Notes: generated from the sequence alone by a model not told the origin. Shown: positions 11,417 to 33,875, counted from the stretch's first letter. The stretch: DNA of 64,000 bases from Opitutaceae bacterium (GCA_035545575.1 DASZYB010000045.1:6030-70029); one strand, 5' to 3'. Numbers and translations: made by a program.

Positions 11417-11418
11417 GA

Positions 11419-12360: not shown

Positions 12361-12366
12361 GAAAGG

Positions 12367-14150: not shown

Positions 14151-14529
14151 AAGGCGTCAACAGTCGTGTGTTCGCATTTCAGGTCAAGCCAAGGCCAACT
14201 TCACCTCTCGTCGGCTGCCCCGTTGGGTTGCTCTGAATTCCGTAACCACTGTTCCTTCCATGCGAAAGCCGTGCCGCGAGACTAAGCAGATTCCAGAATG
14301 GGGCCCACGAACTCGCCCCTAAAATCTCGGTTTCGGCTTTAATCCAAAGGAGCCGCCCCGATCCTCGCCTCAGCAGCGGCGATGCCTGCCGTGCCAATTC
14401 GTCGGCGCGGCGGGCGATCCGGAACTGCAGCGCTTCCCAGACGCTCGGCGCTTCAGCGGGTAAAGCCTCGGAGGCAGGCAACTGACGCGAAGTGGCGTCT
14501 TCGAAGACGTTTGCATTTTCGGCCATGGG

Positions 14530-15515: not shown

Positions 15516-15525
15516 GAGAGATAGA

Positions 15526-15963
15526 TTAGTGGCCCGAAAGGGATGGCATCGCCGCTGGGGCGATCAGATCTCGAAATTCTCGTCCAGGAGGGCGATCATT
15601 GCGCCGGTTGACCCGCTGCTTTGTCCGCTCACGCAACATGCGGTCGAGTTTCGCGATCAGCTGATCAAGGCTGCTCGACAGCGTTGAAGATTCGGCACGT
15701 GCCACTAAATCGGTTCCGCTGATCTCGACCCGACCCGAAGCACTCGCCGGATTGGAGCAGTGCCGCGCGCGTTCTCGCTCAAAGTCGACCCGGATGCGAA
15801 TTATCCGACGGTGGTGCCGCAGAAGCTTGGTCACTTTGGCAACTGCCGCGGTGTAGAGTGTCGGCTGGATTTCAACGCCGATGCCTTGAATGAGAATGTG
15901 CGAGGACGCGTCTGGGCAGCTTCGCGCCGCTCGATTTTGGGATAGAGTTGGACCTTTCGCCAT
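15526..15963 (-). CDS. Ribosome hibernation factor HPF/RaiA-family protein (start uncertain)
   Basis: ILIQGIGVEIQPTLYTAAVAKVTKLLRHHRRIIRIRVDFERE...VEISGTDLVARAESSTLSSSLDQLIAKLDRMLRERTKQ follows the HPF beta-alpha-beta-beta-beta-alpha pattern. Confidence 0.6.
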   Translation of the reverse strand: MAKGPTLSQNRAARSCPDASSHILIQGIGVEIQPTLYTAAVAKVTKLLRHHRRIIRIRVDFERERARHCSNPASASGRVEISGTDLVARAESSTLSSSLDQLIAKLDRMLRERTKQRVNRRNDRPPGREFRDLIAPAAMPSLSGH

Positions 15964-16202
15964 ACCCGTAGGACGTGGCGTAAGTGCCGGTGTTCAGTGG
16001 AAACCAGTACGTGCATTGGAATAGCTGAAGTGACACAGCTCTGGTAAAGTCGCCGATCCTGACTCCGACGATTACGGTCGGCTCGCAGTGGAGATGGTCG
16101 CCGATGTGAGTTGTCGATTCTCTAGGCCAACTTCACCATTTCTCGCGCGCCACGCTGAGAAACCTCCAGCGCGGCCCATTTAGGCGCACTGATAGTTGCC
16201 GA

Positions 16203-17150
16203 TTGCGACGGCATTCCAATAGGCACGGATTGCGCCTAGTCGGCGCCAATCGCCAAAATGCAAATTCCGTGAACGCTGCCGCAACCGCCGTGAGAACCAC
16301 CGTGATTAGCATGGTGACGAATGGTTCGCTCGCGGCGGTGAAGATCGGTGCGGGCGTAATTGGTCATTCGTACGCCCTGATCGCCGACGGTATCGAGTCT
16401 CTGAACGATCTGTTCTCGTCCGGGGTCGTATTGATTGCCCTACGCGTTTCCGCAAAGCCACCGGATGCTGATCATCCCTATGGTCACGGGAAGGCGGAAC
16501 AACTTGGCGCGCTCTTTTCCGCAATTTCACTCCTCGCCGCCGGCGGGACAATTGCAGTCCAGAGCTTCCAGAATCTGTTCCATCGCCATACTTCGCCGGC
16601 TTGGTTCACCCTGCCGGTGCTGGTGGTCGTGATCGTGACGAAGGAGTTGCTCTCCCGATATGCGCTGCAGAAAAGCGATGAGACCACCAGTGCTGCACTC
16701 AAGGGAGATGCCTGGCACCATCGCTCGGACGCGATCACGTCGGCAGCGGCCTTCGTCGGCATCACTATCGCACTGATAGGTGGCCCGGGCTTCGAAAAGG
16801 CGGACGATGTTGCAGCGCTCCTCGGCTGCATTGTCATTGGTTATAACGGCGTGAAGCTTCTGAACAACGCCCTGTACGAGAACATGGAAGGTGCGCCCGC
16901 GCCTGAACTGATCGAGGCCGTCCGCACGGTGGCGCGAGGTGTTCGCGGCGTGCGCGAAATTGAGAAAGTTCGGATGAAAAAGAGCGGCCTCGGGTACCAC
17001 ATGGACATCCACGTGCAGGTTGACGGGACGATCAGCGTGGAAGCCGGTCACGCGATCGGCCACGAGGTTCAAGCAGCGTTGCTCCAGTCCAACCTCCGGG
17101 TACTGGACGTGGTAGTGCATGTTGAACCGGTCCGTGCCAGATCGTCGTAG
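16203..17150 (+). CDS. Cation diffusion facilitator (CDF) family transporter
   Basis: LAAVKIGAGVIGHSYALIADGIESLNDLFSS (TM2 metal site), WHHRSDAITS (TM5 site) and a C-terminal cytoplasmic domain are present. TTG start at 16203. Confidence 0.9.
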   Translation: MRRHSNRHGLRLVGANRQNANSVNAAATAVRTTVISMVTNGSLAAVKIGAGVIGHSYALIADGIESLNDLFSSGVVLIALRVSAKPPDADHPYGHGKAEQLGALFSAISLLAAGGTIAVQSFQNLFHRHTSPAWFTLPVLVVVIVTKELLSRYALQKSDETTSAALKGDAWHHRSDAITSAAAFVGITIALIGGPGFEKADDVAALLGCIVIGYNGVKLLNNALYENMEGAPAPELIEAVRTVARGVRGVREIEKVRMKKSGLGYHMDIHVQVDGTISVEAGHAIGHEVQAALLQSNLRVLDVVVHVEPVRARSS

Positions 17151-18291: not shown

Positions 18292-19881
18292 ATGCACCGC
18301 GAGACTTTCGGCGGCGTTCACATCTTCCGTTCGCACCCGCAAACGGTGCGTTTCTTTCGGAACGCCGCACGCACGCATCTTCTCAGCAAGTTCCACGTCG
18401 GCGACTATCCTGATTCGGATTTCGCAAATCGGATCCTGCAACACCAGTTCGAGTTCTTTTCCAAGAGTCTGACGGCTTTGGTGCCGAAGCTGGTGACCCG
18501 CGACGCGCTGGAATTCGTCCTATTTCAATACGACCAAGCCGGGAAAATTCTTCACGCGAAAGGGATCAAAAATCCTGCCGAAGTGGAGCGATGGCTCGGC
18601 ATTGAAGGCAACTTTCGCCGCGCCCTCAAATACCTTGCCGAGATGATTTGCCTGCTGGGCGAATCTGGGGAGCCGAAGGTAACCCGCGATGAATCGTTCG
18701 CCGCAATGGATGCGGGAATCTTGTGCGCGGAGGCAGTGGTTGAACTGGCTGAACTTAGTCATCGTGTGCACGGTGTTTTTGCGGGACACGCATCGGCGCG
18801 AGTGTTTCCCGCCGGCGAGCCGGTTGACTTTGAAGTGCGGATCGGTGGGCCCTTCGAAGGCTACGATCAAACGATGTTCACGCGGATCAAACGCGACAGG
18901 GAAAACCGCCACCGTTTTATTGTGGGGCACCAGTTCGATCTCGATACGGAGCAACACCGGCAGGTTCTAAACCCTACGTTCGAAGCGTGCTTCGGGTGGC
19001 CCTATGACCGCTTCCTGGACGTGCTTGGCAAGACGATCAGGGGCGCCCAGCCCGCGCCCAACGCGTTTCCGACGCTGTTCATTCACCGAGGCAAACTGGT
19101 TCAGACATTTGTGGACCAAGGCGCGCCTAAGGAAGGCATCGAACGAATCATCTCGGGTTTCACGCTTTCCCCGCAGCGCATGCGGCAGGAGAAACGCGTC
19201 GTATGGAATCCGAAGCAGGAACACCGTGCCTACCGCCGCGGATTCTTCGAGTTCCCGCACGAAACGGGACCACACCTGGCGTTTTCCCGGACCATGGCGC
19301 AGGAAAGCTTCATCCATCTGGTGAACACCATTTGCTACAAGAAGCTTCCGGAGGAGTGGCGCCACCCGACTTTGAACCAAGCGCAGGAATCGCTGTCGTC
19401 GCGAGCGTCGGTGTGGTTCGAGGAAACGGTCGCTCGCAACATGAGTGCACTCGGATTTCAGGGTGCTCGCGCAAAGGAACGGATCGGGACGGACACCCGA
19501 TCAGTGAAGATACCGTCCGATGTCGGAGAGATCGATTATCTCGGATTTCATCCGAAGGAACGATTGCTGGTTATCGCCGAAGCCAAAATGTCGAACGTCG
19601 GGCTCGAAGGAAAACTTTGGCGAGACGACTTGGAGGACTTTGTCCGCCGTCGTAACTCCTACGCGGAGAAATTCCGCAGAAAAATTGCGTGGGTGTCCGC
19701 CTGCCGCAGTGAAATCGGCATCGCTCTTACGGGGGCCAAAGTCGAACGGTTCGCCGCCGTCATGGTGACGCTCTACCCGTGCATTGCTCGAATGTTCATC
19801 ACGGATTTCCCCTGCGTTTCGATCGCCGAGCTCATGCTCGACTATCGCGCCAAAGGCGAATGGCCATATCAGCCCGCTTGA
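18292..19881 (+). CDS. Uncharacterised 529-aa protein with C-terminal PD-(D/E)xK nuclease-like motif
   Basis: PSDVGEIDYLGFHPKERLLVIAEAKMSN (about nt 19527-19590) fits the D...(D/E)xK restriction-endonuclease-fold pattern. The N-terminal ~400 aa were not recognised. Confidence 0.6.
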   Translation: MHRETFGGVHIFRSHPQTVRFFRNAARTHLLSKFHVGDYPDSDFANRILQHQFEFFSKSLTALVPKLVTRDALEFVLFQYDQAGKILHAKGIKNPAEVERWLGIEGNFRRALKYLAEMICLLGESGEPKVTRDESFAAMDAGILCAEAVVELAELSHRVHGVFAGHASARVFPAGEPVDFEVRIGGPFEGYDQTMFTRIKRDRENRHRFIVGHQFDLDTEQHRQVLNPTFEACFGWPYDRFLDVLGKTIRGAQPAPNAFPTLFIHRGKLVQTFVDQGAPKEGIERIISGFTLSPQRMRQEKRVVWNPKQEHRAYRRGFFEFPHETGPHLAFSRTMAQESFIHLVNTICYKKLPEEWRHPTLNQAQESLSSRASVWFEETVARNMSALGFQGARAKERIGTDTRSVKIPSDVGEIDYLGFHPKERLLVIAEAKMSNVGLEGKLWRDDLEDFVRRRNSYAEKFRRKIAWVSACRSEIGIALTGAKVERFAAVMVTLYPCIARMFITDFPCVSIAELMLDYRAKGEWPYQPA

Positions 19882-19902: not shown

Positions 19903-20760
19903 TCACCGCAACCGTGAACACCATGAGCACACCGTTGCTGGGCTTTCATACTCCATCCCGTGCTGCAGCGGATCAGAAATCACCGCTGGATGGGTATGCC
20001 CCAGAATACACGTTGGCGGCAGCGGCCGGCTCACGCTGAAGCCCCATTCATCGGCGCCTTGCTCCTCTTCGGGAATCCGACTGCACCGCTTAAAATGCAG
20101 GGTGGTTAGCGTGTACACCAACGGATCCCGAAAATCATCGTCGATCATCCGCAAAGGCACCGCACATTCGAAAATGGTCGGAATGCCGCGGCGGCGCTGC
20201 CGGACCTGGGATTCGTGAAAGCGAGCCTCGTCGTTGTGCCAGAGGCAATTCATGGCTTCGGGCCCGTAAACAAGATAGTGCCCTGCGAATTCCGTCAGGA
20301 CGTCGCGACTTGCTTCGAGAAAGATTTTGCCCTCACGGAGATCGAGGTCGGCCTCCCTTGCGGCAGTAGCGATATCGGGCCGAGGAATCGTCCCTTCGAA
20401 CAAGGCGAACGCTTCCTCTTCCAGCCACTTTCGGTCCAAAGGTTTCAAACCCTCCTGCAGGTAGCTGTCCAGCGACGTCGGCTTACAGGCGTGAAAACCG
20501 CGAAGAGAGTCGAACACCCGCTCGTAACCGGCGCGGAGTTCCGGCAACAGCATCTGCACTGGCGCGCATTTTTCCTCCGCCAGCGCTTCATCCAGATAGC
20601 GAACTGTGTCGTCATACATCTCCTTCGCGGGGACATCGAGGAGCCGGCGCCGGACCTTAGCGGGCACAACGTCGCTGATAACGCGCGCGACCGGTATTTC
20701 CCATGTGGGAGGGTTCCAAAGATCGATCATCCGACTCGGACCGGTTTTCTTGGCGGACAT
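19903..20760 (-). CDS. Hypothetical protein (285 aa), second gene of a two-gene cassette
   Basis: Clean coding-like composition. It lies 30 nt downstream of the 128-aa gene on the same strand. No family recognised. Confidence 0.55.
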   Translation of the reverse strand: MSAKKTGPSRMIDLWNPPTWEIPVARVISDVVPAKVRRRLLDVPAKEMYDDTVRYLDEALAEEKCAPVQMLLPELRAGYERVFDSLRGFHACKPTSLDSYLQEGLKPLDRKWLEEEAFALFEGTIPRPDIATAAREADLDLREGKIFLEASRDVLTEFAGHYLVYGPEAMNCLWHNDEARFHESQVRQRRRGIPTIFECAVPLRMIDDDFRDPLVYTLTTLHFKRCSRIPEEEQGADEWGFSVSRPLPPTCILGHTHPAVISDPLQHGMEYESPATVCSWCSRLR

Positions 20761-20790: not shown

Positions 20791-21177
20791 TTACGGCTCG
20801 CGCTCCCGACCTTGTAACGAACAAAGATGCGCCTGAATAACCGGCAGCATCTCGTCGACCATTTCAGGTTTGGTCGCAGCGTAGCCTGGCTCCCAAAAAT
20901 GCCATAGCATCGCGTGCTTTCGGTCGCGCGTGACACGCCGACGGAATCGAAGAAAGATTTTGCCGCCGGTTTTTCTCGCCGGGATCGTCGTGGTTTCGTG
21001 TTGGACCACAAAAAATTCGTCGTAGTCGACCACATCCAACTTGGACTCGGACTCTTTGCTCTCGACAATCCCCACCCCTGCAACTTCGGGATACGTTCGC
21101 CAAGCGAGATCTCCCAATGCATCGACCAGGTGTGCCAGCTCGCGCCTTTTGCTGGTCTGCTCGGGCGTGGATTTCAT
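20791..21177 (-). CDS. Hypothetical protein (128 aa), first gene of a two-gene cassette
   Basis: Coding-like composition. It is divergent from the helicase operon across a 222-nt intergenic region. Confidence 0.5.
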   Translation of the reverse strand: MKSTPEQTSKRRELAHLVDALGDLAWRTYPEVAGVGIVESKESESKLDVVDYDEFFVVQHETTTIPARKTGGKIFLRFRRRVTRDRKHAMLWHFWEPGYAATKPEMVDEMLPVIQAHLCSLQGREREP

Positions 21178-21399: not shown

Positions 21400-24300
21400 A
21401 TGTCCGAGAGCGGCCAGAAAAATGGAAACGGCAAGCCCACCACGAAGCCGAGCACCGTCGTGGGGGAGTTGACGCACGCCAAGCAGGTCGAGTTGCCCGC
21501 GGTAACGATCAGCCGCAGCAGCAAACATTTCGAACTGCGCTGTGATCGCAGTCCAGCCGTCCTCGCTCCATGCACGACGACGGTGCTTCGCACTTTCGCG
21601 AAGAAGCCTGTTACAGTTCAGGTCGACACGGGCGCACATGGGCTGTTCACACTGACGCGGAAGACCGCCGCTGACTTGTTCGCGCAAGCCAACGGCGCGT
21701 TGCAGGTCGCAGGTTTCGAACTAATCGGAGAAACGCTGCGACCCCGCGGAAAATTCGCATGGCTCCAGCACGAACTCCTTTCCGCTCATGCGCCCGAGAG
21801 GCTACCGGAGGAGATCGCGAAGTCATGGATTGGTGGGGTGAGCCTCGCCCCGGAGCGCACCGGTACTGACGGTCGGAAGATCGGTCTGCGCGGTCCACAG
21901 ATCGGAGCACTGCACGCCCTGGCGGCCCATTGGACTCTGGGCGAAAGGACGGCTTTGGTCGTAATGCCCACTGGCACCGGCAAGACCGAGGTAATGCTTG
22001 CGCACACGGTGATGACGGTGCCGCGGCGCCTACTGGTGCTGGTCCCGACCGATCCTTTGCGCGAACAGACATTCGATAAATTCGTGGGACTCGGAATTCT
22101 GCATCAGCACGGGATCGTCCACACCTCCGTGCAGAAACCCGTCGTGGGGATCATGCGCCGTGCGCCGCAGACAGAGGCGGACCTCGCGTTCGTGCCACAG
22201 TGCAACGTGGTCGTTTCGACCGTCGCTATGCTTGAGCATGTCCCCAGCGCCGTGCTCAAGAAGTTCACGGATCAATTCGACGCGGTATATTTCGACGAGG
22301 CGCACCACCTGCGCGCGCGCTCGTGGGAACGCGTCTTTGGCGTCCTCGATCAGCAGCGGGTGGTCGCCTTCACCGCCACTCCCTACCGAGAGGATGGCCT
22401 GCGCATTCCGCTGCGTATCGTCTACAATTATCCGCTGCGGCTAGCGCAGCAAAAAGGATATTTTCGGAAGATCGATTTCATTGAAGTGAACGAAATCGAT
22501 CCCCGGGAAGCGGACGAGCAGATCGCGGAAAAAGCCGTCGGGAGGCTGAAGGAAGACGAGGCGAAGGGATCGCGGCACCTGATTCTCGCTCGCGCGGGGG
22601 ACCGGGCGCGAGCGAAGCTGCTTTTCGATTCGATCTATCACCCTCGCTACGGGGAGTTGAAGCCGGTTCTGATCTATTCGGGCATCGCCGGGAAAAATGA
22701 CATCCTGAAGCGGATTCGGCGCGGTGAACATCGAATCGTTGTCTGCGTGGACATGTTTGGCGAAGGCTTCGATCTCCCGGCGCTGAAGATTGCGGCGATG
22801 CACGACATCCACCGTAGTCTCGCGATCACGCTGCAGTTCACCGGGCGCTTTACCCGCGATGCGCAGGGCGTCGGCGATGCGACCCTTATCGCGAACGTGG
22901 CCGAACCGAAGGTGTCCGACGCGATCGAGGAACTCTACGCGGAGGACCCCGATTGGAACGCGATCATCCCCAAGCTAAGCGCCCGCGCGATTCAATCGCA
23001 GCTTAACTTTGCCCAGTTCCTCGATCGCGTGCCGCAAGGCTACGGCGAAGAGCAAAGTCTTTTCGACCTGAACATCATCCGACCGAAGACCAGCACGGTC
23101 ATCTACTCCTGTCCCGACTTTCAGTGGAAGAATTTCCGAAAGGGCCTGCGCGGCGGTGATGTGAAGGTGCATCGCTGGTGGCCCAGCACCGACAAGGACA
23201 TGCTCGTATTCGTCACGCACACGCGTCTTCGCATCGACTGGGCCTTAATCAAGGAGACGACGGACGAAGTCTGGGATGTGTTCGTCCTTGCCTATGACCG
23301 TCCGCGAAAGCTGCTCTACATCCATAGCTCGCACAAAGGCTCGCTGCATTCTGACTTGGCGACCGCGGTGGGCGGCGACAGCGCGCGGATTATCGACGGC
23401 GACCGCGTGTTCAAGGCGATGCACGGCATCGGTCGGCTGATCCTCTACAGCGCAGGACTCTACGGCCGCGGGCGGATGCGCTTCCGCATGTTGACGGGTT
23501 TAGACATCGCCGAGGCGATTGGGCCGGCGGCCCAAGCGGGCTCGACACGTGCGAACCTTTTCGGGGCGGGCTATGCCAACGGCAAGCGCGTGACGATTGG
23601 GGCGTCCGCCAAGGGCCGGCTTTGGTCGATGTCCTCTAGCCCAATTCCCGACTGGTTCGAATGGTGCCAGGAGGTCGCGACCAAGATTCTCGATCCGAAT
23701 GTGCGGGCCGACGCGATTCTCCAACACACCCTCGTCGCCACCGCGTTGACCGCGCTACCCGCCAACGAGGTGTTCACGCTTTTGCTCCCCGACGACTGGC
23801 TGGATGCGAACGCGTCCCTGGGAAAACTATCGTTGGCCGGCAAGAGCTACGATCTCTCTTCGTGTGGCGTCACCTCCGTCACTCGCACGTCCGATGGCAA
23901 AATCGAATTCGAAATGGATGTGTCCGGAGAGCACACCCTCAGCTTTCAGATGCGGTGGGGGCCCGATGAAGCGCAGTTCGGCGTGCTGCAAGTCAAAGGT
24001 CCGGATGCCACACTGCGGGTTGACAATGCGATCCAGGATCTCACCGGGTTCTTCCGCGAGAACCCGCCAGTGCTCCTCTTGGTGGACGGATCCGAAGTGC
24101 GTGGGGGACGGCACCTCAAGCCGTCGGACGCACATCCCTATACTTACGACGTCGCCACCATCATTGCGGCCGATTGGACCAACGTCCCGATCCAGGAGGA
24201 ATCGAAATGGAAGCATGGCGTGATGCGTGCCGCCTCAATTCAGGGAAAAGTCATCGACGACTGTGTGGCGCAAAAGAATCTGATCGTCTTTGACGATGAT

Positions 24301-24735
24301 GACGCCGGCGAAACCGCCGACGTGGTCGAGATCGTCGAAGACGGCCAGACCGTGACGTTCCGCTTCTATCACTGCAAGTATTCCGGCGGTGCGACTCCAG
24401 GCGAGCGCGTGAAGGACCTGTATGAAGTTTGCGGGCAAGTGGTCCGCAGCTCGCGTTTGGTGCACAATGCGGAAGCTCTGCTCCGTCAACTGGAGCGGCG
24501 GGAGAAACACAATCTCGGAGGCCGTCTCACGCGTTTTGAAAAAGGCGACCGCAAAACACTTGTCTCCCTCAGGCGCCGAATCCGCAAAATGAGAACTCGG
24601 TTCGAATTCTTTGTCGTGCAGCCCGGACTATCGAAGGCCGCGCTGCAACCCGATCTGGCATCCGTTCTCGGCGCCGCCGACGCCTACCTACGTGATACAA
24701 CTGGTTCCCCACTGCGGATCATTGCGAGCAAGTGA
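21400..24735 (+). CDS. SF2 (DEAH, ResIII-like) helicase, 1111 aa, with a long C-terminal extension ending in a nuclease-like motif
   Basis: Walker A VVMPTGTGKTEV (nt 21964-21987), DEAH box YFDEAHHL (22294-22305), motif III AFTATP, motif V CVDMFGEGFDLP and motif VI LQFTGRFTR. The C-terminus has IVFDDDDAGETADVVEIVEDGQTVTFRFYHCKYSGG (about 24280-24390). Confidence 0.85.
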   Translation: MSESGQKNGNGKPTTKPSTVVGELTHAKQVELPAVTISRSSKHFELRCDRSPAVLAPCTTTVLRTFAKKPVTVQVDTGAHGLFTLTRKTAADLFAQANGALQVAGFELIGETLRPRGKFAWLQHELLSAHAPERLPEEIAKSWIGGVSLAPERTGTDGRKIGLRGPQIGALHALAAHWTLGERTALVVMPTGTGKTEVMLAHTVMTVPRRLLVLVPTDPLREQTFDKFVGLGILHQHGIVHTSVQKPVVGIMRRAPQTEADLAFVPQCNVVVSTVAMLEHVPSAVLKKFTDQFDAVYFDEAHHLRARSWERVFGVLDQQRVVAFTATPYREDGLRIPLRIVYNYPLRLAQQKGYFRKIDFIEVNEIDPREADEQIAEKAVGRLKEDEAKGSRHLILARAGDRARAKLLFDSIYHPRYGELKPVLIYSGIAGKNDILKRIRRGEHRIVVCVDMFGEGFDLPALKIAAMHDIHRSLAITLQFTGRFTRDAQGVGDATLIANVAEPKVSDAIEELYAEDPDWNAIIPKLSARAIQSQLNFAQFLDRVPQGYGEEQSLFDLNIIRPKTSTVIYSCPDFQWKNFRKGLRGGDVKVHRWWPSTDKDMLVFVTHTRLRIDWALIKETTDEVWDVFVLAYDRPRKLLYIHSSHKGSLHSDLATAVGGDSARIIDGDRVFKAMHGIGRLILYSAGLYGRGRMRFRMLTGLDIAEAIGPAAQAGSTRANLFGAGYANGKRVTIGASAKGRLWSMSSSPIPDWFEWCQEVATKILDPNVRADAILQHTLVATALTALPANEVFTLLLPDDWLDANASLGKLSLAGKSYDLSSCGVTSVTRTSDGKIEFEMDVSGEHTLSFQMRWGPDEAQFGVLQVKGPDATLRVDNAIQDLTGFFRENPPVLLLVDGSEVRGGRHLKPSDAHPYTYDVATIIAADWTNVPIQEESKWKHGVMRAASIQGKVIDDCVAQKNLIVFDDDDAGETADVVEIVEDGQTVTFRFYHCKYSGGATPGERVKDLYEVCGQVVRSSRLVHNAEALLRQLERREKHNLGGRLTRFEKGDRKTLVSLRRRIRKMRTRFEFFVVQPGLSKAALQPDLASVLGAADAYLRDTTGSPLRIIASK

Positions 24736-24759
24736 TCGGAATCGCCGCCAGCTCGCTCC

Positions 24760-26298
24760 ATGGCCACAGTCTTCAACCCGGACACGCTCTACGCGTTCTA
24801 CAAGAAGGCGCGCAATCTTCTCCGGAAGTTCGAACCAGGCTCGGTAACTGGGCACATCCTAAACGCTCTGCATAAGGCCCACACTGGGGGCGTTGAGGTT
24901 CTTCGTCACTACCAGCCCTGGAACCTTCTCCTCGCTTTAAAGTGGGCGATACAGGAAGCCGATGCCACTGCACATCGTCGGCCAGCCGCGACCCTCAATG
25001 ACGTCCATCGCGTGCTCAATATCATTCATGACATGGAGGCACACGTGCGAATGCCTTCGGAATTCGAGCACGTCACGCTGTTCATGCGGCACATGGCGTT
25101 CCAGCAATTCTGGCTCCATCCGCCCGATGGCTCTGCGCTTGTTCGTCAGGAAATTCTTTTCGGCGAACTGCCGACGGGGCACGCATTCCAAAGGGAGTTT
25201 TTTGAGCTGGCTGGATTTACTGTCGCCGACAGCACCGAACTTTCCTTCGCTCTCCTCGTGGCCTTTCTCTCGGGCTCGGATCCGCGAGTCATCAATCGGG
25301 CCGATTTCGCTAACATCGAACCGAGATTATCAGTCGGCGCCCTCGACCGTTTTCTCCGCCATCTATCACGCACTCCAACCCAGCTGCGAACGTGGCTCAA
25401 TGAGCCACCGATCCGCCAAGTTTCCGTTTCGGACCAGTTCATCTTGCCGAGCCCATTCTTGCGCGCGCCCTTGCTGAACGCCGAGGGGCGGTTCTTTGTC
25501 TATCATCCGCCGCTCCTTTTCCGGGCCCTCGAGGAACTGGCGTATCGAACATTACGATCAAAGGACCCGGAATGGTTTGCCCAGAGGTTCGGTCCCATTT
25601 TTGAGCAACACGTCGCGCGGTGCCTCGCCGATGCCCGAATCACAGCGGTGCCGGAAGAGAAATCGAAAACGAGCCTAGCGGGGAGCGGCAAGTGCGTCGA
25701 CTTCCTGATCGTGGAAAACGACTGCAACGTTCTGATCGATGCCAAGGGTGTGGAGATGTCCACGGTTGGTCGCGTCTCCCACGAGGCCGAAATTGTGTAT
25801 CGTGCCGTGAAGGATTCCGCCATGAAGGCCATCGTGCAGGGGATGGATACCGTGCGGCGCATGAGGCAGACGCCGTCGGAGCGAATTCCGTTCGGCACTC
25901 ATGAGAACTACTTGCTCGTCGTAACTTTCGAGCCACTGCACCTCGGACCCAGCAACGAGCTAGGTGCTCTCTTTGGGTCGCAATTGACGCGGCGGCTTCA
26001 TCGAGACTTTGGCGAACCACTGCCGTTCTCGCTAGAAAATGTCTTCTTCTGCAGCATTGGCGAGCTTGAGCGACTGCTCGCTCGGATTCGGGCGGGTAGC
26101 ACGACGCTGCTCGCGGCGCTGCGATTCGCCAAACAGTCGGATTCCGATCGCACGACCCGGAAATTCGACTTCGGCCAGCACGTGCAGGAGCTCGGTCCTC
26201 CCGCTGATCGGCTGCCGTTCTTGGAAGATGCGCTCGGCCGATTGTGCGAGCGTTGCATACAACGCCTCCCGCCTGAGCTGAGGCGCGCCGTCAAATAG
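24760..26298 (+). CDS. Uncharacterised 512-aa protein with PD-(D/E)xK nuclease-like motif
   Basis: GKCVDFLIVENDCNVLIDAKGVEMS (about 25690-25755). It lies 24 nt downstream of the helicase gene. Confidence 0.65.
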   Translation: MATVFNPDTLYAFYKKARNLLRKFEPGSVTGHILNALHKAHTGGVEVLRHYQPWNLLLALKWAIQEADATAHRRPAATLNDVHRVLNIIHDMEAHVRMPSEFEHVTLFMRHMAFQQFWLHPPDGSALVRQEILFGELPTGHAFQREFFELAGFTVADSTELSFALLVAFLSGSDPRVINRADFANIEPRLSVGALDRFLRHLSRTPTQLRTWLNEPPIRQVSVSDQFILPSPFLRAPLLNAEGRFFVYHPPLLFRALEELAYRTLRSKDPEWFAQRFGPIFEQHVARCLADARITAVPEEKSKTSLAGSGKCVDFLIVENDCNVLIDAKGVEMSTVGRVSHEAEIVYRAVKDSAMKAIVQGMDTVRRMRQTPSERIPFGTHENYLLVVTFEPLHLGPSNELGALFGSQLTRRLHRDFGEPLPFSLENVFFCSIGELERLLARIRAGSTTLLAALRFAKQSDSDRTTRKFDFGQHVQELGPPADRLPFLEDALGRLCERCIQRLPPELRRAVK

Positions 26299-26315
26299 GC
26301 TTTGGCACCCAACCT

Positions 26316-27548
26316 ATGATAAATCCCGAGAACCCCGAGGAGTTGGAGCAGTTCGAAGGAATGGACGACGAGGCACGCGCCACCTTTGTCGTTCGCTTGC
26401 AGGATCAGTTCACCGTTTCTGTCGCACTCCGGCTTTATGCCGAAGGGCAAGCCCATGAAGCCGCTGGATTAGTCGCCGCGCCGGGCCTGCCACAAGCCGG
26501 CGATGGTTGTCGCGTCGACTTGACGCAGTGTGCACTGGCCGACTGGCGGTTCCTCGGCGAGGTGGCCGGGCGAGGCTATCTGGATGAAATGGTGGGAGGA
26601 CTAAGGATGCTGCGCTCGGGCAGTCCGCCACGCGATTCCCTGGTGGAGCTTTGCCGAAACGGATTCTTATTGCGGCAGGGAAAATTGAGGTGGGTTTACC
26701 GGCATGATCCCACTCGCAACGTGAATATCGTGTATGCCGTGTGTCGGCGGACCCACAATCCGCTAAAAAAGATATGGCGCTACTTCAGCCAGAAAAAGGC
26801 GGTCGATCTCATCGAGCGAGGGCAGATCTACCTGAGCAGGCTCGATACCTTGGCCGAGCGCGACGGCGGCGACCGCTACGAAGGCACGCCAACCATTCCT
26901 GGGGTCGCCGGATTCACCGCCGCTCTTATCGCCAGCCTTGGCCTGGCACATCCTGATTTTCTCCAACGCTATGACCATTGCCGCCGCGCAACCTTCGTTT
27001 GTTGCTGGCACAAGGCCGAGCATGAGGCGCTGCCAATGTGGCTCGGCTATTGCCGCGAAGCGCCGACTGAAGTCTCACCGCCGGTTCCAGGAGGTTTTGC
27101 GCTCCAGACGACCGAGCGTCGGCTTCAACACCAGTTCGTAAAATTTCATGATGAGCCTAGAATTCAGGGCCAACAGTTCTTTCTCCGCGACATAGATTAC
27201 GTCGACCACCGAACTCATGAGCCGCCTGCGCGCTTCGGTGAGGAAGTGTTTCTCAAAGCAAACTGGTTCCGCGACGAGAGGGAGCTTCGTCTCGGCATCC
27301 AGCGTCTCGATTGCGCATGCGCAGGCTCAGTGGTGCAGATCGAGGAAAAGCTCACGGCTTTGCCGCGATTTGTGCGATTGTCGGTCGACCTCAATGCGAT
27401 CACCGAAACAATCGTTCTCAATCCCGGCACCTCCGCCGCGAATCGAGCAGCAATCACAGGCCTGGTCACGGAGCTCTATCCTGAGCTAGCGCGGCGGATC
27501 AGAACCTCCGCATTGGAAGTGCCTCCCGTTGCCGCAACATTGAGTTAG
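26316..27548 (+). CDS. Uncharacterised 410-aa protein, possibly DUF2971-like
   Basis: RYFSQKKAVDLIERGQIYLSRLDTLAERDGGDRYEG resembles the N-terminal DUF2971 pattern (..l.lsr...f.D..EG). It lies 17 nt downstream of the previous gene. Confidence 0.55.
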   Translation: MINPENPEELEQFEGMDDEARATFVVRLQDQFTVSVALRLYAEGQAHEAAGLVAAPGLPQAGDGCRVDLTQCALADWRFLGEVAGRGYLDEMVGGLRMLRSGSPPRDSLVELCRNGFLLRQGKLRWVYRHDPTRNVNIVYAVCRRTHNPLKKIWRYFSQKKAVDLIERGQIYLSRLDTLAERDGGDRYEGTPTIPGVAGFTAALIASLGLAHPDFLQRYDHCRRATFVCCWHKAEHEALPMWLGYCREAPTEVSPPVPGGFALQTTERRLQHQFVKFHDEPRIQGQQFFLRDIDYVDHRTHEPPARFGEEVFLKANWFRDERELRLGIQRLDCACAGSVVQIEEKLTALPRFVRLSVDLNAITETIVLNPGTSAANRAAITGLVTELYPELARRIRTSALEVPPVAATLS

Positions 27549-27569
27549 CCGTTGGGCCCACGCACCGCC

Positions 27570-28781
27570 TCAGGTAGAAGCCGGTGCCGCACTTGAAAAG
27601 TGACGCGCGATTACCCGAAGGCGCCGCAGCAGGTCGTCGTAGGTCATGATGTCGACGACGTGTCGGTATTTCCGACGGATCACTTCGAAGTCCGCTTTTT
27701 GGTCGGCCGTGAGCGCTTCATCTCGGCCCAAGATGATCAGGCCGGAAGGATTCACGATCTTGATGGTGAGCCCGGCAGGCAACTTATCACCGTAGCGCTC
27801 ATTCAGCTTTTTCTCTCCTTCGACGCCCCACCGGTTAAGGTGGTAGAGATATTTTTCAAGCTGCATGACGGTTCCGTTTAGTTCGCGCATCGGCACATGA
27901 TTATCCCGATACCGCGTGCTGGTCACAACACACTCGGCGAAGGGCTTCTTGATCTCGGCGGCATCGACGTAACCGGACGCATCTACAAGTAGAAAATCGA
28001 TTTCGCGATTCTTGCCTGCAAGGCTGTCGCGGACCGGCGCTCCGGTGAAGGCCGCGACATATTTGGGATAGAGCAACTGAATGACCTGCAGAATCTCCGC
28101 CTGCCACTGTGCCTCCGAGTAGGTTTCCGCGCGTTTGAGCATCGCCTCGAGCTTTGCGACCAGTTCAGAGAATTTGTCGGTCTCGTAGGGCGCGAAGGTC
28201 TGCGCTGGCTGCGATCCCTTGGCCGAGCGCTTCCGATTTCGAAATTTCGTATACTCGGCCTCAAAGTCACGATCGAGAGGAACGTAGCTGCGGATCATGC
28301 TGCTGACCCTTGCGCGAGCATACTTTTTCAACTCTGTGGTCGTCGGGAACTGTCGCAGGAGATCCTCAAAAACCTTTTTGGGCAAAGCATCCGGGTGATC
28401 ACCGCCAATGTAGAAGCTACTAAAACCATGTTTCTGGAAGCCCCGAAAAATGGGGATGTTGGTTTCAGCGACGAACGTGGTGCGTTTGAATTCCAGCGAC
28501 TCATGCAAGAAGAGGTCGTAATCGACGTCCAACACGCGCCGATCCATCCGGTAGTAGCCGCCCTCTACTTTTTCCCCGACGACGAACTGATACATCGCAT
28601 CCATGGGGCCTTCCGTGTTCGGGGCTTCGCGCAGATAGATTTCCTTTCGCACGAAAAACGTCCGACTGGAGAGTGCAACCGGCTCACCCGATTCAATTGG
28701 TTCGAGCAGCCAGTCCGGTTCGGCATTCTCTGGGTGATAGCGAAGAATAAGCGCCTTATCTTGGGGGTCGAAGTCGATCAT
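27570..28781 (-). CDS. sduA: Shedu-like defence protein (SduA, DUF4263 nuclease domain)
   Basis: NREIDFLLVDASGYVDAAEIKKPF...MQLEKYLYHL...LIILGRDEALTADQKADFEVIRRKYRHVVDIMTYDDLLRRL matches the DUF4263 C-terminal pattern: the D..E.K core, then viiGr, then a trailing TYDdLl. Confidence 0.7.
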   Translation of the reverse strand: MIDFDPQDKALILRYHPENAEPDWLLEPIESGEPVALSSRTFFVRKEIYLREAPNTEGPMDAMYQFVVGEKVEGGYYRMDRRVLDVDYDLFLHESLEFKRTTFVAETNIPIFRGFQKHGFSSFYIGGDHPDALPKKVFEDLLRQFPTTTELKKYARARVSSMIRSYVPLDRDFEAEYTKFRNRKRSAKGSQPAQTFAPYETDKFSELVAKLEAMLKRAETYSEAQWQAEILQVIQLLYPKYVAAFTGAPVRDSLAGKNREIDFLLVDASGYVDAAEIKKPFAECVVTSTRYRDNHVPMRELNGTVMQLEKYLYHLNRWGVEGEKKLNERYGDKLPAGLTIKIVNPSGLIILGRDEALTADQKADFEVIRRKYRHVVDIMTYDDLLRRLRVIARHFSSAAPAST

Positions 28782-29842: not shown

Positions 29843-30344
29843 CGTGCTGGCGCATGTCCGCCATTTCCTTGTTCAGCCGGGCCAATTCCTTCGAGAGCGA
29901 CTCGTTCTGCTCAATCAGAGAGGCCATGAGCTGGTTCTGTTCAGCCATCTTCTGTTCGAGTTCGGCTGGCAGCGGGTTTGGCTGCTTGGCGGCGTCAGCA
30001 ACTGCGAGCGCCGGTCCCAACGGTACCACGGTGGGAGCGTTCGGATTGAGATTCCACGTACCCGCGCTCTCCCGCCGGTACACAACATGCCCCTCATGCA
30101 TCACGTTTGGATCGTTCGGGTCTACGTACCGGTTGATGGGGTACGCCTTCAGCCCGTCGCTGTACCGCACGTTTTCGGAGTTCTTCTGATCCATCTGCGT
30201 ACCAGCGATGGGCGCTGGTGCAGTGGCAGGAGCCGATTTCACGATCGCGTCCGAGGTCGGTTTTGCGTCAGCCGTTTTCTCCGTCGTCGCGCACCCGCCA
30301 CATGCGAGGGCGACAACGCCAATGAGCCATGTGCTATTTTTCAT
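29799..30344 (-). CDS. T4SS-associated lipoprotein with C-terminal coiled coil
   Basis: ATG at 30344. MKNSTWLIGVVALACGGCAT is a lipobox. The gene overlaps the end of trbI by 11 nt. Confidence 0.55.
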   Translation of the reverse strand: MKNSTWLIGVVALACGGCATTEKTADAKPTSDAIVKSAPATAPAPIAGTQMDQKNSENVRYSDGLKAYPINRYVDPNDPNVMHEGHVVYRRESAGTWNLNPNAPTVVPLGPALAVADAAKQPNPLPAELEQKMAEQNQLMASLIEQNESLSKELARLNKEMADMRQHGALAATEDKSEHRN

Positions 30345-31380
30345 TCTGACTCCTCCAAACTTGCTCGTTCTTAGTGTTTCCACGGCTGCCGTTCGCCTGG
30401 TCGATCGTCTCCGTGACGTAGAGGTAGAATTGATGTCCAGCCGGGACCCGGACGTAGAAGCCGTCGCGGGCAATGGCTTCCTGGATCTGATGCGCGTACG
30501 CGTTTAGCACGTCCGCAGTTCCCTGAAGCGCAGCGTTGCGGCCGGAGATTTTCGGCACCTGTACGACATCGCCAAACGCAGTCCCGGTGTTCTGGAGTTG
30601 TTGGAGTCCGCTCGCGACGCCGGCCAGGAACGTTGATGCGAACATTTTCACCTCCTGGTAGTCGTCGGACTTGATCAAATCGCCAATCAGGCCGGCCGAG
30701 CCATCTCGGAGGCCGAATTCGCCGGTCGTATCGTCCTTCTCCCGATCCAGCGCGATGCCGTTGAGCACGAGCTCGGTCCCATTCAGGGGCGAACTGTCGC
30801 GCCACACTACGACCCACTTGCCCGAGGCTGCGATCCGCTCCCGGGAACGATCGAGTGACGCGCGGCCATGCACCTCCGCGCCAGCGGGAATGATCAGTTC
30901 GCCGTTGTGCCAGACATCCTCGGTCACCAACCCGATCACCGGGGTGTCGAGTTTGGAAGACTCGAGCGTCATCACGGTTTCGCAAGGGATGAGCCGTCCG
31001 TACGGCGCATACGTCTTCGATAGCTGTGGCGCCGGGTCGGCGGCGCCGGACACAAGACTGATCGGGAGCGCGCGCGGTTTGGGCGGAGGCTGACGTCGGA
31101 AGAAGCCGCGATCGGTCGGAGCATCGTCCTCGCGCGGCGTTGGCTTTTCGTCTCGCCCGTTCTTGACCAGCATGGCGGGCACAAACGGTAGGCTTGGGCG
31201 CGTCATCATTTCTACCGAAGCGCTGGCCGGCACCGTATCGACTTTCGTCATCTGTGCCGCATGCGCGCGCTCGCGCGCATTGCTGCGGAGCATCGTCACA
31301 CCGCCGAAGAGGACGAAGGCGGCAAACACCACGATGTTGCCCGTTGGCGACCGGAGAAATGGCAGAATGCGGAAGTTCAT
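30334..31380 (-). CDS. trbI: Conjugal transfer protein TrbI/VirB10 family
   Basis: N-terminal TM helix, then a Pro-rich linker. The C-terminal barrel reads TPVIGLVTEDVWHNGELIIPAGAEVHGRASLDRSRERIAASGKWVVVWRD...GSAGLIGDLI. Confidence 0.8.
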   Translation of the reverse strand: MNFRILPFLRSPTGNIVVFAAFVLFGGVTMLRSNARERAHAAQMTKVDTVPASASVEMMTRPSLPFVPAMLVKNGRDEKPTPREDDAPTDRGFFRRQPPPKPRALPISLVSGAADPAPQLSKTYAPYGRLIPCETVMTLESSKLDTPVIGLVTEDVWHNGELIIPAGAEVHGRASLDRSRERIAASGKWVVVWRDSSPLNGTELVLNGIALDREKDDTTGEFGLRDGSAGLIGDLIKSDDYQEVKMFASTFLAGVASGLQQLQNTGTAFGDVVQVPKISGRNAALQGTADVLNAYAHQIQEAIARDGFYVRVPAGHQFYLYVTETIDQANGSRGNTKNEQVWRSQNEK

Positions 31381-32249
31381 TGCGGAATCACCAGCTTCGC
31401 GTCGCGCTCCACCCGCGGCACAATAACGCTGAACGAGTTCTTCACACTGATGTTGGCCCGACCACCGCGTGGCGTCCCCGTGATTGCGAAGTATGCTGCC
31501 GTTATCGCTTTTGGTGGCACGATTCCGGATGCGTCCACAATGGAGGCGTAGTACACGTCCTCCCCTACGCGGACCGCCAACCGTTGCGGCTGATACACGA
31601 CCTCCTTGTCGCCGGTGCTCACGAGGCGCAGCCGGAAGACCAGCGTGTCTTCAGGGTCGAACCGAAACACCTCGTCCACGATCACTCGGAAATCACGATA
31701 GTAGCTGACGGTGCCAGGCGTGACGTGATCGATCTGCTGGACGGCCTCGGGATACTGCTTCTGCAGGAGATCGAAGCTCTTGGCTCGATCCAATAGGCCA
31801 ATCAACACTTCAGGTGTGACCCTCCGCTGGAAACTCGCGCTGCGGCCGGTGATTTCATCTTCGTAGAATGTCACCGAGCCGTACGGCTGGTCCGAAGCGG
31901 TGAAGCGAATCACGTAGGTCTTGTTCTTCCAGACCACGTTCACGCCCGCATGCGCATTTGGTTCCAGCGCGCGCACGCTGAAGAAATAGCGGCCCGGAGT
32001 GTACGCCAGGAGGACTGGCGCCGGCGTGTCAGGACTCGCCGACACGTTTGCGCCTTCCAGGCCCATGATCGCGGACGGAAACATCAACGTCGTCGGCACA
32101 TCCCGGCTGATCGGCACCTCGTACACTGTACGCTCATCCAGCGGGAATTGCTTGATAACCTGCGTGTCCAGCGGATGAACGTCCGCACGGACGCAAAGCG
32201 CGAACGCGAGCAGTCCCACGCTCAATGAATGGTGTAATCGTAGGTCCAT
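31377..32249 (-). CDS. trbG: Conjugal transfer protein TrbG/VirB9-like
   Basis: ATG at 32249 with signal peptide MDLRLHHSLSVGLLAFALCVRA. It is beta-rich and sits between the VirB8-like and VirB10-like genes. The longer N-terminal ORF extension is Arg-rich junk. Confidence 0.65.
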   Translation of the reverse strand: MDLRLHHSLSVGLLAFALCVRADVHPLDTQVIKQFPLDERTVYEVPISRDVPTTLMFPSAIMGLEGANVSASPDTPAPVLLAYTPGRYFFSVRALEPNAHAGVNVVWKNKTYVIRFTASDQPYGSVTFYEDEITGRSASFQRRVTPEVLIGLLDRAKSFDLLQKQYPEAVQQIDHVTPGTVSYYRDFRVIVDEVFRFDPEDTLVFRLRLVSTGDKEVVYQPQRLAVRVGEDVYYASIVDASGIVPPKAITAAYFAITGTPRGGRANISVKNSFSVIVPRVERDAKLVIPQ

Positions 32250-32914
32250 ACCGCGAGGGGGTATCGCTTGTTCGCCAGCATGTTTGGATTCCGAGCGAAC
32301 GTGAGGTTCAGTGTGAATTTCGGCGCTTCGGTGAACACCTGGTTCTCGAACACGCCCGTCCGGACGAGTTGCCCTTCCACTTTCACGAGCACGCGATCTT
32401 CCCGTGTGCGGAGCACATCCATTTTGAATACCTCCGGCTTCTGATGGATGTTCTTCAGCTCGAACTCGCTCTTCGTCACGTCGCGGTCGTGCTGCGCCTT
32501 CTGGTACGCGTCGGTGAGAAACAGCTTCTGCAGCACGTCTGGATAATCGAAGCCCTGCGGGTTCCGTTGAAAGAGCGCGAGCGTAGCCCACAGCGTCATC
32601 GCCTCGTGCAGTTCCTTTGCCTGCTCAAACCCGAGTACCGGTGAGATCGAGAAGGTCCCGGCGCCGTCGAGCACAACAACGCGTTCGCGTGAATTCGCCG
32701 CCTTGATGATGAAATACGGCTCCACGATGGAGAGCGCGACGGCGGCGCAAGCGATGAGACACCACGCACGGGCGGCGAATGCGTGGTCAGCAAACAACTT
32801 CGCCGGAGAGAATATCCGCACTTTGGCTGTCGGCGTAGGCCGGTTCCCGTTGCTGACTCTTGTCTGGCGCAAAGCCTCCGGCCTTTCGCCGAGTTCGGCG
32901 ACTGATGAAACCAT
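32222..32914 (-). CDS. trbF: Conjugal transfer protein TrbF/VirB8-like
   Basis: A single N-terminal TM helix (AWCLIACAAVALSIV) is followed by an NTF2-like domain. The position fits the Trb gene order. Confidence 0.65.
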   Translation of the reverse strand: MVSSVAELGERPEALRQTRVSNGNRPTPTAKVRIFSPAKLFADHAFAARAWCLIACAAVALSIVEPYFIIKAANSRERVVVLDGAGTFSISPVLGFEQAKELHEAMTLWATLALFQRNPQGFDYPDVLQKLFLTDAYQKAQHDRDVTKSEFELKNIHQKPEVFKMDVLRTREDRVLVKVEGQLVRTGVFENQVFTEAPKFTLNLTFARNPNMLANKRYPLAVWTYDYTIH

Positions 32915-32927
32915 CGTTAATCCTCCC

Positions 32928-33872
32928 TTAGATACCTGGACGTGCTTCGATTCCTAGTGGCGGTGGGGGCGGACGTGGCGGCGCAACCGACGCGCTCGCC
33001 TGTGGAGCGAGCGCCGTCCCGCCGCGTGGGAACACGCGATCACCGACGCCGTAGATCATGCTGGCACCGCTACGCACCCAATGGGCGACGTTAGCAGAGG
33101 CGCCGCTGAACGCGTGCCCCTGCGCAAAAAGCATCTGCATCACGACTGGCGTCGCGAGCATCCCCACCAAAATCATAACTGTGGCGAGAATGCCGCCGAT
33201 GAAAGACAGCAGCGGAGAATACATGGCGTCTCCGATCGTCGCCGGCGTGGGCCCAACCGCGTTTCGAAAATCCGTCCACACTGCGAGAGCCACCATGTTC
33301 GTCAGAGCGAACCCGACGGGCCACGCCAGTATGGCTAGAATCTGTTGGAAGAAACGTACCGTAATGCCGCCAAGGCCGGGAACCATCACACAGGCCAACA
33401 TGAACGGGGTGATGAGGTACAACAGCCACCGGAGTACGTACTGCAGAATATGCATCGGCACCGTGATGAGGGTACCGATGTAGATGAACACGTTCGCGAG
33501 CGCCCGGGACACAGCCTGGTAGATCGATTCATTCAGGTGGCGCCAGGACCAGCCGGTGCCTTGGGGGTTGTCCGTCGTAGATTCACGAATGGCCTGCGAT
33601 GCCGACGCAGGATTTTCCGTGTAGCCCGGGTCGACGAACTCAGAGATGTTCAGGAACACCTTCTCAACACGTGGAAACCACACGTTCTGGTAAGCGATCG
33701 CTGCGACGACGATCAGCGCCTTCACCAATACACCGAAAAGCTGAGATCCCTGCACTTGCCCCCGGGCCGCGTACGCGACGAGTCCCGCGACCATTATGGC
33801 AAATACGATGAAGCGAAATGCCGTAACGAGGGTCAGGATGTTGTTCTCGAGTGTTGGAAGGTAGATTTCCAT
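32928..33872 (-). CDS. trbL: Conjugal transfer protein TrbL/VirB6-like
   Basis: Polytopic membrane protein (about 6 TM) with a Pro-rich C-terminus (APPRPPPPPLGIE). Confidence 0.7.
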   Translation of the reverse strand: MEIYLPTLENNILTLVTAFRFIVFAIMVAGLVAYAARGQVQGSQLFGVLVKALIVVAAIAYQNVWFPRVEKVFLNISEFVDPGYTENPASASQAIRESTTDNPQGTGWSWRHLNESIYQAVSRALANVFIYIGTLITVPMHILQYVLRWLLYLITPFMLACVMVPGLGGITVRFFQQILAILAWPVGFALTNMVALAVWTDFRNAVGPTPATIGDAMYSPLLSFIGGILATVMILVGMLATPVVMQMLFAQGHAFSGASANVAHWVRSGASMIYGVGDRVFPRGGTALAPQASASVAPPRPPPPPLGIEARPGI

Positions 33873-33875
33873 GCG

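Follow-up and report, generated by a model that had tools for sequence, protein, structure and literature searches.

Three adjoining genes on an Opitutaceae conjugative element as a probable stack of independent one-gene immune modules

An operon-like trio that probably holds three modules

A 64,000-nucleotide stretch of DNA from an Opitutaceae bacterium (GCA_035545575.1, DASZYB010000045.1:6030-70029), below referred to as the window and counted from its first letter, carries at positions 21400-27548 three densely packed genes on the plus strand. Gene 1 (21400-24735) encodes 1111 amino acids (aa), gene 2 (24760-26298) 512 aa and gene 3 (26316-27548) 410 aa; the spacers between them measure only 24 nucleotides (nt; 24736-24759) and 17 nt (26299-26315). 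We assign a probability of roughly 0.7 to the reading that this segment is a defence-island stack of three independent one-gene immune modules and not one three-component system. This reading is based on the assignment of gene 2 to the known antiphage family GAPS1, on the absence of co-occurrence among the three families, and on natural deletion variants whose surviving genes have remained under constraint. The stack would sit in an integrative or conjugative element of the Opitutaceae genome, with its modules arranged head-to-tail and probably co-transcribed.

An earlier interpretation made from the DNA letters alone (the sequence-only reading) had taken the trio for one system that fits nothing known. 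Its three co-directional open reading frames (ORFs) and both spacers were reproduced by ORF calls, and the motifs that it had quoted for genes 1 and 2 were recovered by motif search. All three ORFs have homologues, with pairwise ratios of nonsynonymous to synonymous substitution rates (dN/dS) of 0.07-0.20, and hence represent real genes, not chance ORFs. The single-system claim itself did not survive, since gene 2 could be placed in a named system via the NCBIfam model NF047931 and no co-occurrence of the three families is conserved outside a close clade (0/80 and 0/11 loci, see below).

Assignment of gene 2 to the GAPS1 family

Three libraries were scanned, i.e. PADLOC 2023, Pfam 2025 and NCBIfam release 20 (2026). 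Gene 2 gave no match in PADLOC or Pfam; in NCBIfam it matched NF047931 (antiphage_GapS1) from end to end (profile positions 2-455 of 455) with 361.8 bits at a cut-off of 320 and an E-value of 5.4e-108. Judged from this profile match, gene 2 is a member of the GAPS1 family. GAPS1 (GMT-island anti-phage system 1) is an experimentally validated antiphage system that consists of a single PD-(D/E)xK protein, with the T7 capsid protein as trigger and dormancy as outcome; its defence is lost upon the substitution D313A or K328A (Mahata et al., bioRxiv 10.1101/2023.03.28.534373).

The PD-(D/E)xK signature that had been noticed in gene 2 is well borne out. The protein carries VDFLIVENDCNVLIDAKG at aa 313-330, in which the site reads D314...D327-A-K329 (nt 25699-25746); D314 and K329 are conserved in 55 of 55 homologues and D327 in 54, and the spacing of 15 residues from the aspartate to the lysine equals that of D313 and K328 in GAPS1. 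Gene 2 further resembles GAPS1 in its length of ~500 aa and in the C-terminal position of the site. Moreover, GapS1 relatives with 55-59% identity to gene 2 occur as single genes, with neither a helicase upstream nor a gene 3-like gene downstream. It differs from GAPS1 in sharing only ~21-23% identity with the Klebsiella plasmid homologues, in its origin from Verrucomicrobia, to which it extends the family, and in its location within a co-directional string on a conjugative element instead of a GMT island. By homology, the gene 2 product would sense a phage structural protein and impose growth arrest through its D314/D327/K329 site.

Deletion variants and the history of the trio

The complete trio is confined to a small clade, in which several loci lack one or more of its members. 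At two loci (L001/L002), gene 2 (95% aa identity) and gene 3 (90%) are preceded by only the terminal 92 codons of gene 1 (100%); an Mrr-like gene and a type I restriction-modification (R-M) system adjoin them. This gene 1 stub corresponds to 24457-24735 of the window (aa 1020-1111), with the blastn breakpoint at 24457. In another locus (L105), gene 1 is intact (93%) and gene 3 (78%) follows it at a distance of 55 nt; the same junction is found in L009, where gene 1 ends at the contig edge. At both junctions, the gene 1-gene 2 spacer and ~20 nt from the start of gene 2 are still present, whereupon gene 3 starts; in L105 homology extends to window position 24779, and the retained piece includes codons for 'FNP', a motif seen at the N-terminus of gene 2 and a few of its relatives. 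Because of this gene 2 remnant, the junction reads as a deletion scar and not as an empty insertion site. Together, the remnants of gene 2 (L009/L105) and of gene 1 (L001/L002) show that the order gene 1-gene 2-gene 3 is ancestral within the clade and that modules have since been lost singly. The genes that survive in these variants are intact and under purifying selection (dN/dS 0.07-0.20), so that the variants serve as a natural experiment on module independence.

Further close relatives of gene 1 show other surroundings. In L003, gene 1 (92%) is accompanied by three upstream genes and homology ends at the gene 1 stop codon, another close homologue (P0337) stands alone, and in L106 gene 1 (79%) is followed after 18 nt by an unrelated gene. 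The latter (L106:5120-6118, at least 333 aa) occupies the same 3' position with different cargo; a scan of the variable neighbours, including this gene, against NCBIfam gave no match. The position just 3' of the gene 1 stop, which holds genes 2 and 3, gene 3 alone, a different gene, or nothing, thus behaves as a variable cargo slot. In this respect it is reminiscent of the Hma locus, an insertion hotspot with other defence genes inside or right beside its operon (PMC11232893). Exchange may also have taken place within the cluster. Between the window and L105, the synonymous divergence (dS) is 0.50 for gene 1 and 1.03 for gene 3, and this twofold difference between neighbours in the same locus pair indicates a mosaic history with recombinational exchange.

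Co-occurrence was assessed in 80 reference loci of the gene 1 family, which were searched by tblastn within 7 kb and in which three genes per side were clustered. No relative of gene 2, gene 3 or sduA was found in this range at any of the loci (0/80), and the clustering revealed no recurrent partner. The largest neighbour cluster comprised 8/80 loci with scattered offsets on both strands. Genes 1 and 2 were likewise absent near metagenomic relatives of gene 3 (0/11 loci) as well as near its other relatives outside the clade, as judged by tblastn for L004 and L007/L008 and from called gene sizes for P0192.

Several points weigh against three independent modules. Short spacers (24 and 17 nt), a common strand and a scan between the three genes that found no internal terminator or promoter signal above chance, a result that by itself says nothing either way, fit one transcript, and co-regulation or synergy of the trio is possible. 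The ancestral order shows that the trio is not a one-off juxtaposition, and gene 1 or a remnant of it precedes every close gene 3 allele (at least 77%: window, L001/L002, L009, L105). Structure and profile searches left the PD-(D/E)xK fold of the gene 1 C-terminus and the ADP-ribosyltransferase (ART) fold of the gene 3 C-terminal domain unconfirmed. Moreover, neither the gene 1 family nor fusions of the gene 3 type have, to our knowledge, been linked to a phenotype.

The compact layout and the ancestral order would also be expected of one three-component system, in which the helicase-nuclease encoded by gene 1 serves as sensor or motor and the GapS1-like nuclease and the RelE/DUF2971 protein encoded by gene 3 as effectors. 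Such a system is nevertheless highly improbable. The three families do not co-occur beyond the clade, GAPS1 is sufficient by itself, purifying selection persists on the remaining genes where gene 1 or gene 2 is missing, and gene 1 homologues with 92-93% identity occur without genes 2 and 3. This alternative, like the two others discussed below, is rated low because the co-occurrence or co-retention that it predicts is not found. Tight spacing can hence mimic an operon-encoded system, and in the preferred reading of three separate modules it reflects how densely independent immune genes are packed on a conjugative element.

Gene 1, a predicted helicase-nuclease

The central part of gene 1 (aa 160-500, 21877-22899) is a superfamily 2 (SF2) helicase core that matches Pfam ResIII (2e-22), DEAD (2.2e-14) and Helicase_C (1.8e-6) within aa 161-486. 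It contains a Walker A motif (MPTGTGKT, aa 189-196 with K195; nt 21964-21987), DEAHH (aa 299-303; DEAH at nt 22294-22305), FTATP (aa 324-328) and QFTGRFTR (aa 479-486). These motifs are invariant across 58 homologues, and the SF2 hallmarks, i.e. Walker A, DEAH, motif III, motif VI and two RecA-like lobes, are all present. An AlphaFold2 (AF2) model was obtained with a mean predicted local distance difference test score (pLDDT) of 83.4. Foldseek searches with the full-length protein recovered the motor only, with RadD, XPB, SauUSI, HsdR and EcoP15I Res as best matches (including 7clg, 4zcf and 4beb).

On both sides of the motor, gene 1 carries additional domains. The N-terminal domain (aa 28-124, 21481-21771) is all-beta according to the AF2 secondary structure, with confident pLDDT, and gave no Pfam match at E<=10. 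It is poorly conserved beyond close homologues, and tblastn matches from other phyla mostly begin at aa ~110-140. The middle region (aa 545-939, 23032-24216) is beta-rich in the AF2 model and conserved throughout the family alignment; neither PDB profiles nor Pfam gave a match at E<=10. Overall, the proteins of ~1,100 aa in this family are colinear and conserved over their entire length, including an invariant C-terminal block.

This block belongs to a nuclease-like C-terminal domain (aa 940-1110, 24217-24732) with the motif DDDDxGExAD...YHCK at 24292-24378, part of which is the patch ADVVEIVEDGQTVTFRFYHCKYS (aa 973-995). In the family alignment, D966, D967, E971, D974, H991 and K993 are invariant. 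D974 precedes strand beta2 in the AF2 model and H991-C-K993 lies at the end of beta3; the arrangement D974...H991-C-K993 would represent a non-canonical HxK variant, and the predicted topology fits PD-(D/E)xK. The domain had no PDB profile match and no Pfam match at E<=10, and an hhalign comparison with the GapS1 nuclease domain, run with controls, gave a probability of 0.1%, i.e. background level. On the grounds of motif, predicted topology and invariance, a nuclease assignment is thus plausible, though unconfirmed by profile and structure searches. In describing gene 1 as an SF2 helicase that ends in a nuclease-like patch, which proved to be conserved, the sequence-only reading is supported by the Pfam core and the invariant residues.

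Gene 1 may hence encode a stand-alone SF2 translocase or helicase to which sensor-like beta domains and, at the C-terminus, a PD-(D/E)xK-like domain are fused. Conceivably, it would couple ATP-driven movement on DNA to the cutting of foreign or aberrant DNA, following the same logic as Hna, HmaA, SauUSI, and the motor subunits of Type I and Type III restriction systems.

Distribution and neighbourhoods of the gene 1 family

A homologue search yielded more than 100 clusters of proteins of ~1,090-1,110 aa that align over 85-100% of gene 1. At least 444 relatives were found in GTDB species genomes, which is a lower bound from a scan with one genome per species. The family occurs in Proteobacteria, Bacteroidota, Firmicutes, Verrucomicrobia, Planctomycetes, Patescibacteria, Acidobacteria and others, with a patchy distribution across these phyla. 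In tblastn searches it was found on 68 plasmid records, of which 39 are conjugative (25) or mobilizable (14). Carriers include IncFIB/IncHI1B plasmids of Klebsiella pneumoniae of ~246 kb as well as plasmids of the haloarchaeon Halorussus. On the conjugative K. pneumoniae plasmid pKp_Goe_026-1 from a clinical isolate, a homologue with 35% identity to gene 1 (WP_074091248.1, at 116850-119840) has IS5 elements on both sides. This protein would be a convenient experimental model for the family.

Among 147 immediate neighbours of family members, a batch scan detected components of numerous known defence systems: Azaca (ZacA/ZacB), DRT (UG14, Drt2 and UG5), a prokaryotic Argonaute (pAgo), a CBASS cyclase, type II and type III R-M, and PDC-S02. 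A batch Pfam scan of the neighbours added nine tyrosine integrases (Phage_integrase) and four serine recombinases. On the Methylocystis plasmid pMpar-1, a helicase of the gene 1 family adjoins, between trb and traG, three genes annotated as a dsDNA-nuclease-domain protein, a hypothetical protein and an ATP-binding protein; from products and gene order alone, we read these as Lamassu-like. From such defence and mobile neighbours, i.e. through guilt by association, we infer a one-gene defence function for the gene 1 family.

A local arrangement recurs in Alphaproteobacteria. In L079 and L084 (around 7000-16400), the helicase immediately precedes three co-directional genes, and two of the three match PADLOC ZacA and ZacB (Azaca). 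Homologues of the same three genes follow the helicase in L086 in opposite orientation, with their order reversed. A co-directional gene for a protein of ~1,140 aa lies 13-14 nt upstream of the helicase in L079 and L086.

Instead of an immune function, gene 1 could have a role in repair or replication, as a helicase akin to RadD or XPB, or in the maintenance of mobile elements, and its presence in variable regions would then not point to defence. RadD and XPB are indeed the top structural matches, no defence model matches beyond the helicase core, and the nuclease fold is unconfirmed. We regard this option as unlikely, given that the family is patchy across phyla, is found on plasmids flanked by insertion sequence (IS) elements and integrases, and has many known defence systems among its neighbours. 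Furthermore, the invariant acidic/lysine motif at the C-terminus and the sensor-like domains are both missing from RadD and XPB.

Comparison of gene 1 with known helicase systems

Among the closest known single-protein designs is that of Hna, an 845-aa DinG/XPD-like helicase-nuclease with a representative in S. meliloti that acts by abortive infection (PMC13381803). In both, one polypeptide joins an SF2 motor at the N-terminus to a PD-(D/E)xK-type nuclease, predicted in the case of gene 1, at the C-terminus; both stand alone and are broadly distributed. In contrast to Hna, gene 1 is XPB/RadD/ResIII-like, is ~270 aa longer, and has added beta domains at the N-terminus and in the middle. Gene 1 was thus rejected as an Hna homologue: no Hna chain appeared at E<=1e-3 among PDB sequences or in the top 50 Foldseek matches, and helicase clade and size differ.

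HmaA consists of a Snf2 helicase and a C-terminal NOV_C/DUF3883 nuclease; it is usually accompanied by HmaB and HmaC and suffices alone for defence (PMC11232893). Gene 1 is no HmaA, as Pfam detected no Snf2-rel_dom, NOV_C or DUF3883 domain and PADLOC no HmaA, and the locus lacks the HmaB and HmaC partners. Hachiman was rejected as well, since none of the three proteins of the trio has a HamA or HamB match in PADLOC or a DUF1837 match in Pfam. In general, for Hachiman, DISARM, Druantia, Zorya, Gabija, Mokosh and DdmD, PADLOC gave nothing beyond matches to helicase lobes, with E-values of ~1e-8 or weaker. Hence, the sequence-only reading was right to set gene 1 apart from the first six of these systems.

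Restriction motors, i.e. SauUSI (type IV), Type III Res and Type I HsdR, share with gene 1 a similar helicase core and the design of translocase plus nuclease. The best PADLOC match of gene 1 is mREase_IV, again for the helicase lobe only. Unlike these motors, the gene 1 family lacks a PLD domain, gave no sign of an SRA-like domain, and has neither Mod nor HsdM/S beside it. We rejected an orphan Type III Res because no Mod neighbour recurs and no methyltransferase adjoins gene 1 in the window; MTase_III occurs among the 147 neighbours with one member for each of three models, which are possibly one protein. A pair of genes encoding ~1,000 and ~630 aa recurs in 4/80 gene 1 loci and is only possibly type I R-M. 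None of PADLOC 2023, Pfam 2025 and NCBIfam 2026 has a name for the gene 1 family. As a large group of stand-alone helicases with a nuclease-like tail, it represents a candidate for defence discovery, which the Klebsiella plasmids make easy to test.

Gene 3, a fusion of a RelE-fold and a DUF2971-like domain

A word-indexed search with gene 3 returned ten relatives only. An exhaustive profile search retrieved 7177 representatives, with ~20 full-length clusters among them and otherwise mostly proteins of ~250 aa that match aa 150-400 with E-values down to 1e-33. Gene 3 thus comprises two parts, the first of which is a domain with RelE/ParE fold (aa ~60-147, 26493-26756). In a Foldseek search of the PDB, this part matched RelE2 (3g5o_B) with an E-value of 2.7e-4, a probability of 1.0 and a TM-score on the target of 0.75, followed by many RelE, YoeB and HigB chains; the BFVD again yielded RelE-like proteins. 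A PDB profile search aligned aa 72-147 with residues 6-81 of E. coli RelE (E 0.01). The signature LR..G..R.VYR contains the invariant residues R120 and R125, which align with R56 and R61 of RelE. Equivalents of RelE K52, K54 and Y87 are not conserved, and an equivalent of R81 is confined to close homologues. Gene 3 hence deviates from RelE/ParE toxins by its incomplete catalytic set (K52, K54, R61, R81, Y87) and its fused second domain, and cleavage of mRNA by the RelE-like domain appears doubtful on the basis of these residues. No RelB- or ParD-type antitoxin gene adjoins gene 3, nor is there a small upstream gene of that kind.

The second part (aa ~150-400, 26763-27515) is a divergent DUF2971-like domain, which was recognized through profile intermediates. 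Neither gene 3 nor aa 149-410 alone matched Pfam DUF2971 (PF11185), even at relaxed thresholds. Of the relatives of this domain, 51/81 do match PF11185 (best 7.6e-8), and tblastn found plasmid genes annotated as 'DUF2971 domain-containing protein' (1e-8). The sequence-only reading had assigned a DUF2971-like motif to the N-terminus of gene 3; the link to DUF2971 held through these relatives, but the motif (WRYFSQ...GDRYEG, aa 154-190) lies in mid-protein, where the C-terminal domain begins, and the RelE-like domain had been missed. In an alignment of 81 sequences, Y295, K314, E323 and R325 are invariant, and W154-R155-Y156 and E321 nearly so. A survey of ARTs in Legionella placed DUF2971 with predicted DarT/AbiGi-like ARTs, the core of which features a tyrosine (motif II) and ExE (motif III) (PMC12522546). 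Gene 3 retains both elements of this predicted core in form of Y295 and E321-x-E323 (nt 27276-27284). The pLDDT of the AF2 model is below 50 over aa 181-337, and this poor model of the C-terminal domain explains why Foldseek (PDB, BFVD) detected the RelE-like part only.

The DUF2971 protein Aristaios (316 aa) from lactococcal plasmids is a validated one-gene abortive-infection system (PMC11381338). Gene 3 resembles it in that aa ~150-400 fall within the DUF2971 sequence neighbourhood, and differs from it and from the ~250-aa DUF2971 proteins by the extra N-terminal RelE/ParE-fold domain. By analogy to Aristaios, gene 3 may encode a self-contained toxin of the abortive-infection type that combines the RelE fold with a predicted DarT/AbiGi-like ART. 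This architecture is a rare fusion that is unnamed in PADLOC 2023, Pfam and NCBIfam 2026, and no description of it was found. As a further candidate, it could shed light on the targeting or control of DUF2971 ART-like toxins.

More distant relatives of gene 3 occur alone in a prophage-like region (L004), alone in P0192, or in different architectures. In L007 (1172-4091) and L008, a relative with 37% identity is followed directly, without a gap, by a gene for a tetratricopeptide-repeat (TPR) protein of at least 563 aa (stop at 2401, next start at 2403), and the two may form a separate two-gene arrangement. A 720-aa protein (L095:3585-5747) matches aa 32-405 of gene 3 with its C-terminal half and carries in addition an N-terminal region of ~350 aa.

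Alternatively, gene 3 could be an accessory effector that needs its neighbour, such that the units would be two-gene systems of genes 1 and 3 or of genes 2 and 3. Close gene 3 alleles do all lie immediately 3' of gene 1 or gene 2, and gene 3, which joins two toxin-type folds, has no antitoxin or regulator of its own in evidence. Its partner varies, however, from gene 2 without intact gene 1 (L001/L002) to gene 1 without gene 2 (L009/L105), its distant full-length relatives have neither partner (the TPR-associated L007/L008, L004 and P0192), and the DUF2971 protein Aristaios works alone. A dependent gene 3 is therefore decidedly unlikely, somewhat more so than a non-immune gene 1.

A more far-reaching extension of the three-module reading can be offered tentatively. 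Gene 1 might represent a new, widespread one-gene helicase-nuclease immune family with a swap slot at its 3' end, and gene 3 a toxin in which a RelE module is joined to a DarT-like ART; we consider this combination possible but do not favour it. The gene 1 family numbers hundreds to thousands of proteins from more than 10 bacterial phyla, and the RelE-fold module could possibly be ribosome-docking or autoinhibitory. Both genes vary known design principles, namely single-protein helicase-nuclease defence and one-gene abortive infection of the DUF2971 or toxin type. The locus is thus a useful source of candidates for the specialist, yet unsurprising.

Genomic setting of the trio

The proposed location of the trio in a defence island within the cargo region of a conjugative element agrees with the surrounding genes. 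By exact sequence match, the window belongs to a contig of 382 kb in an Opitutaceae (Verrucomicrobiota) metagenome-assembled genome. Heavy-metal efflux cargo of the same element, comprising a P-type ATPase, a CzcCBA-type resistance-nodulation-division (RND) pump and a cation diffusion facilitator (CDF) transporter (5480-17150), adjoins the defence island. A conjugation module with TrbI, a TraG-like P-loop ATPase and a TrwC/MobF relaxase is found at 30334-46617. Megablast of the trio region against plasmids gave no close relative.

Between the metal-efflux cargo and gene 1 lie three unannotated genes (18292-19881 on the plus strand, 19903-20760 and 20791-21177 on the minus strand), for which Pfam, PADLOC and NCBIfam gave no match. 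The label of orphan nuclease-fold genes, which had been given to genes flanking the trio, is thus unconfirmed by these libraries; the 529-aa protein in this upstream group ends in a D..ExK-like patch (GEIDYLGF...LLVIAEAKMS). The three genes are syntenic only with L003 (83-89% aa identity) and missing from other gene 1 loci. As their co-occurrence is restricted to this one locus, they were rejected as partners of gene 1.

Downstream, gene 3 is convergent with a gene on the minus strand (27570-28781) that had been described as Shedu-like. This assignment is now firm, with a full-length PADLOC match to SduA (4e-140) and a Pfam match to SduA_C (4.8e-32), i.e. the DUF4263/SduA_C nuclease domain that defines Shedu. 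Shedu is hence a fourth, independent defence module opposite the trio. No terminator-like hairpin was found between the stop codons of gene 3 and Shedu, which lie 21 nt apart (27548-27570), so that the opposite-strand transcripts of the two genes would overlap or collide.

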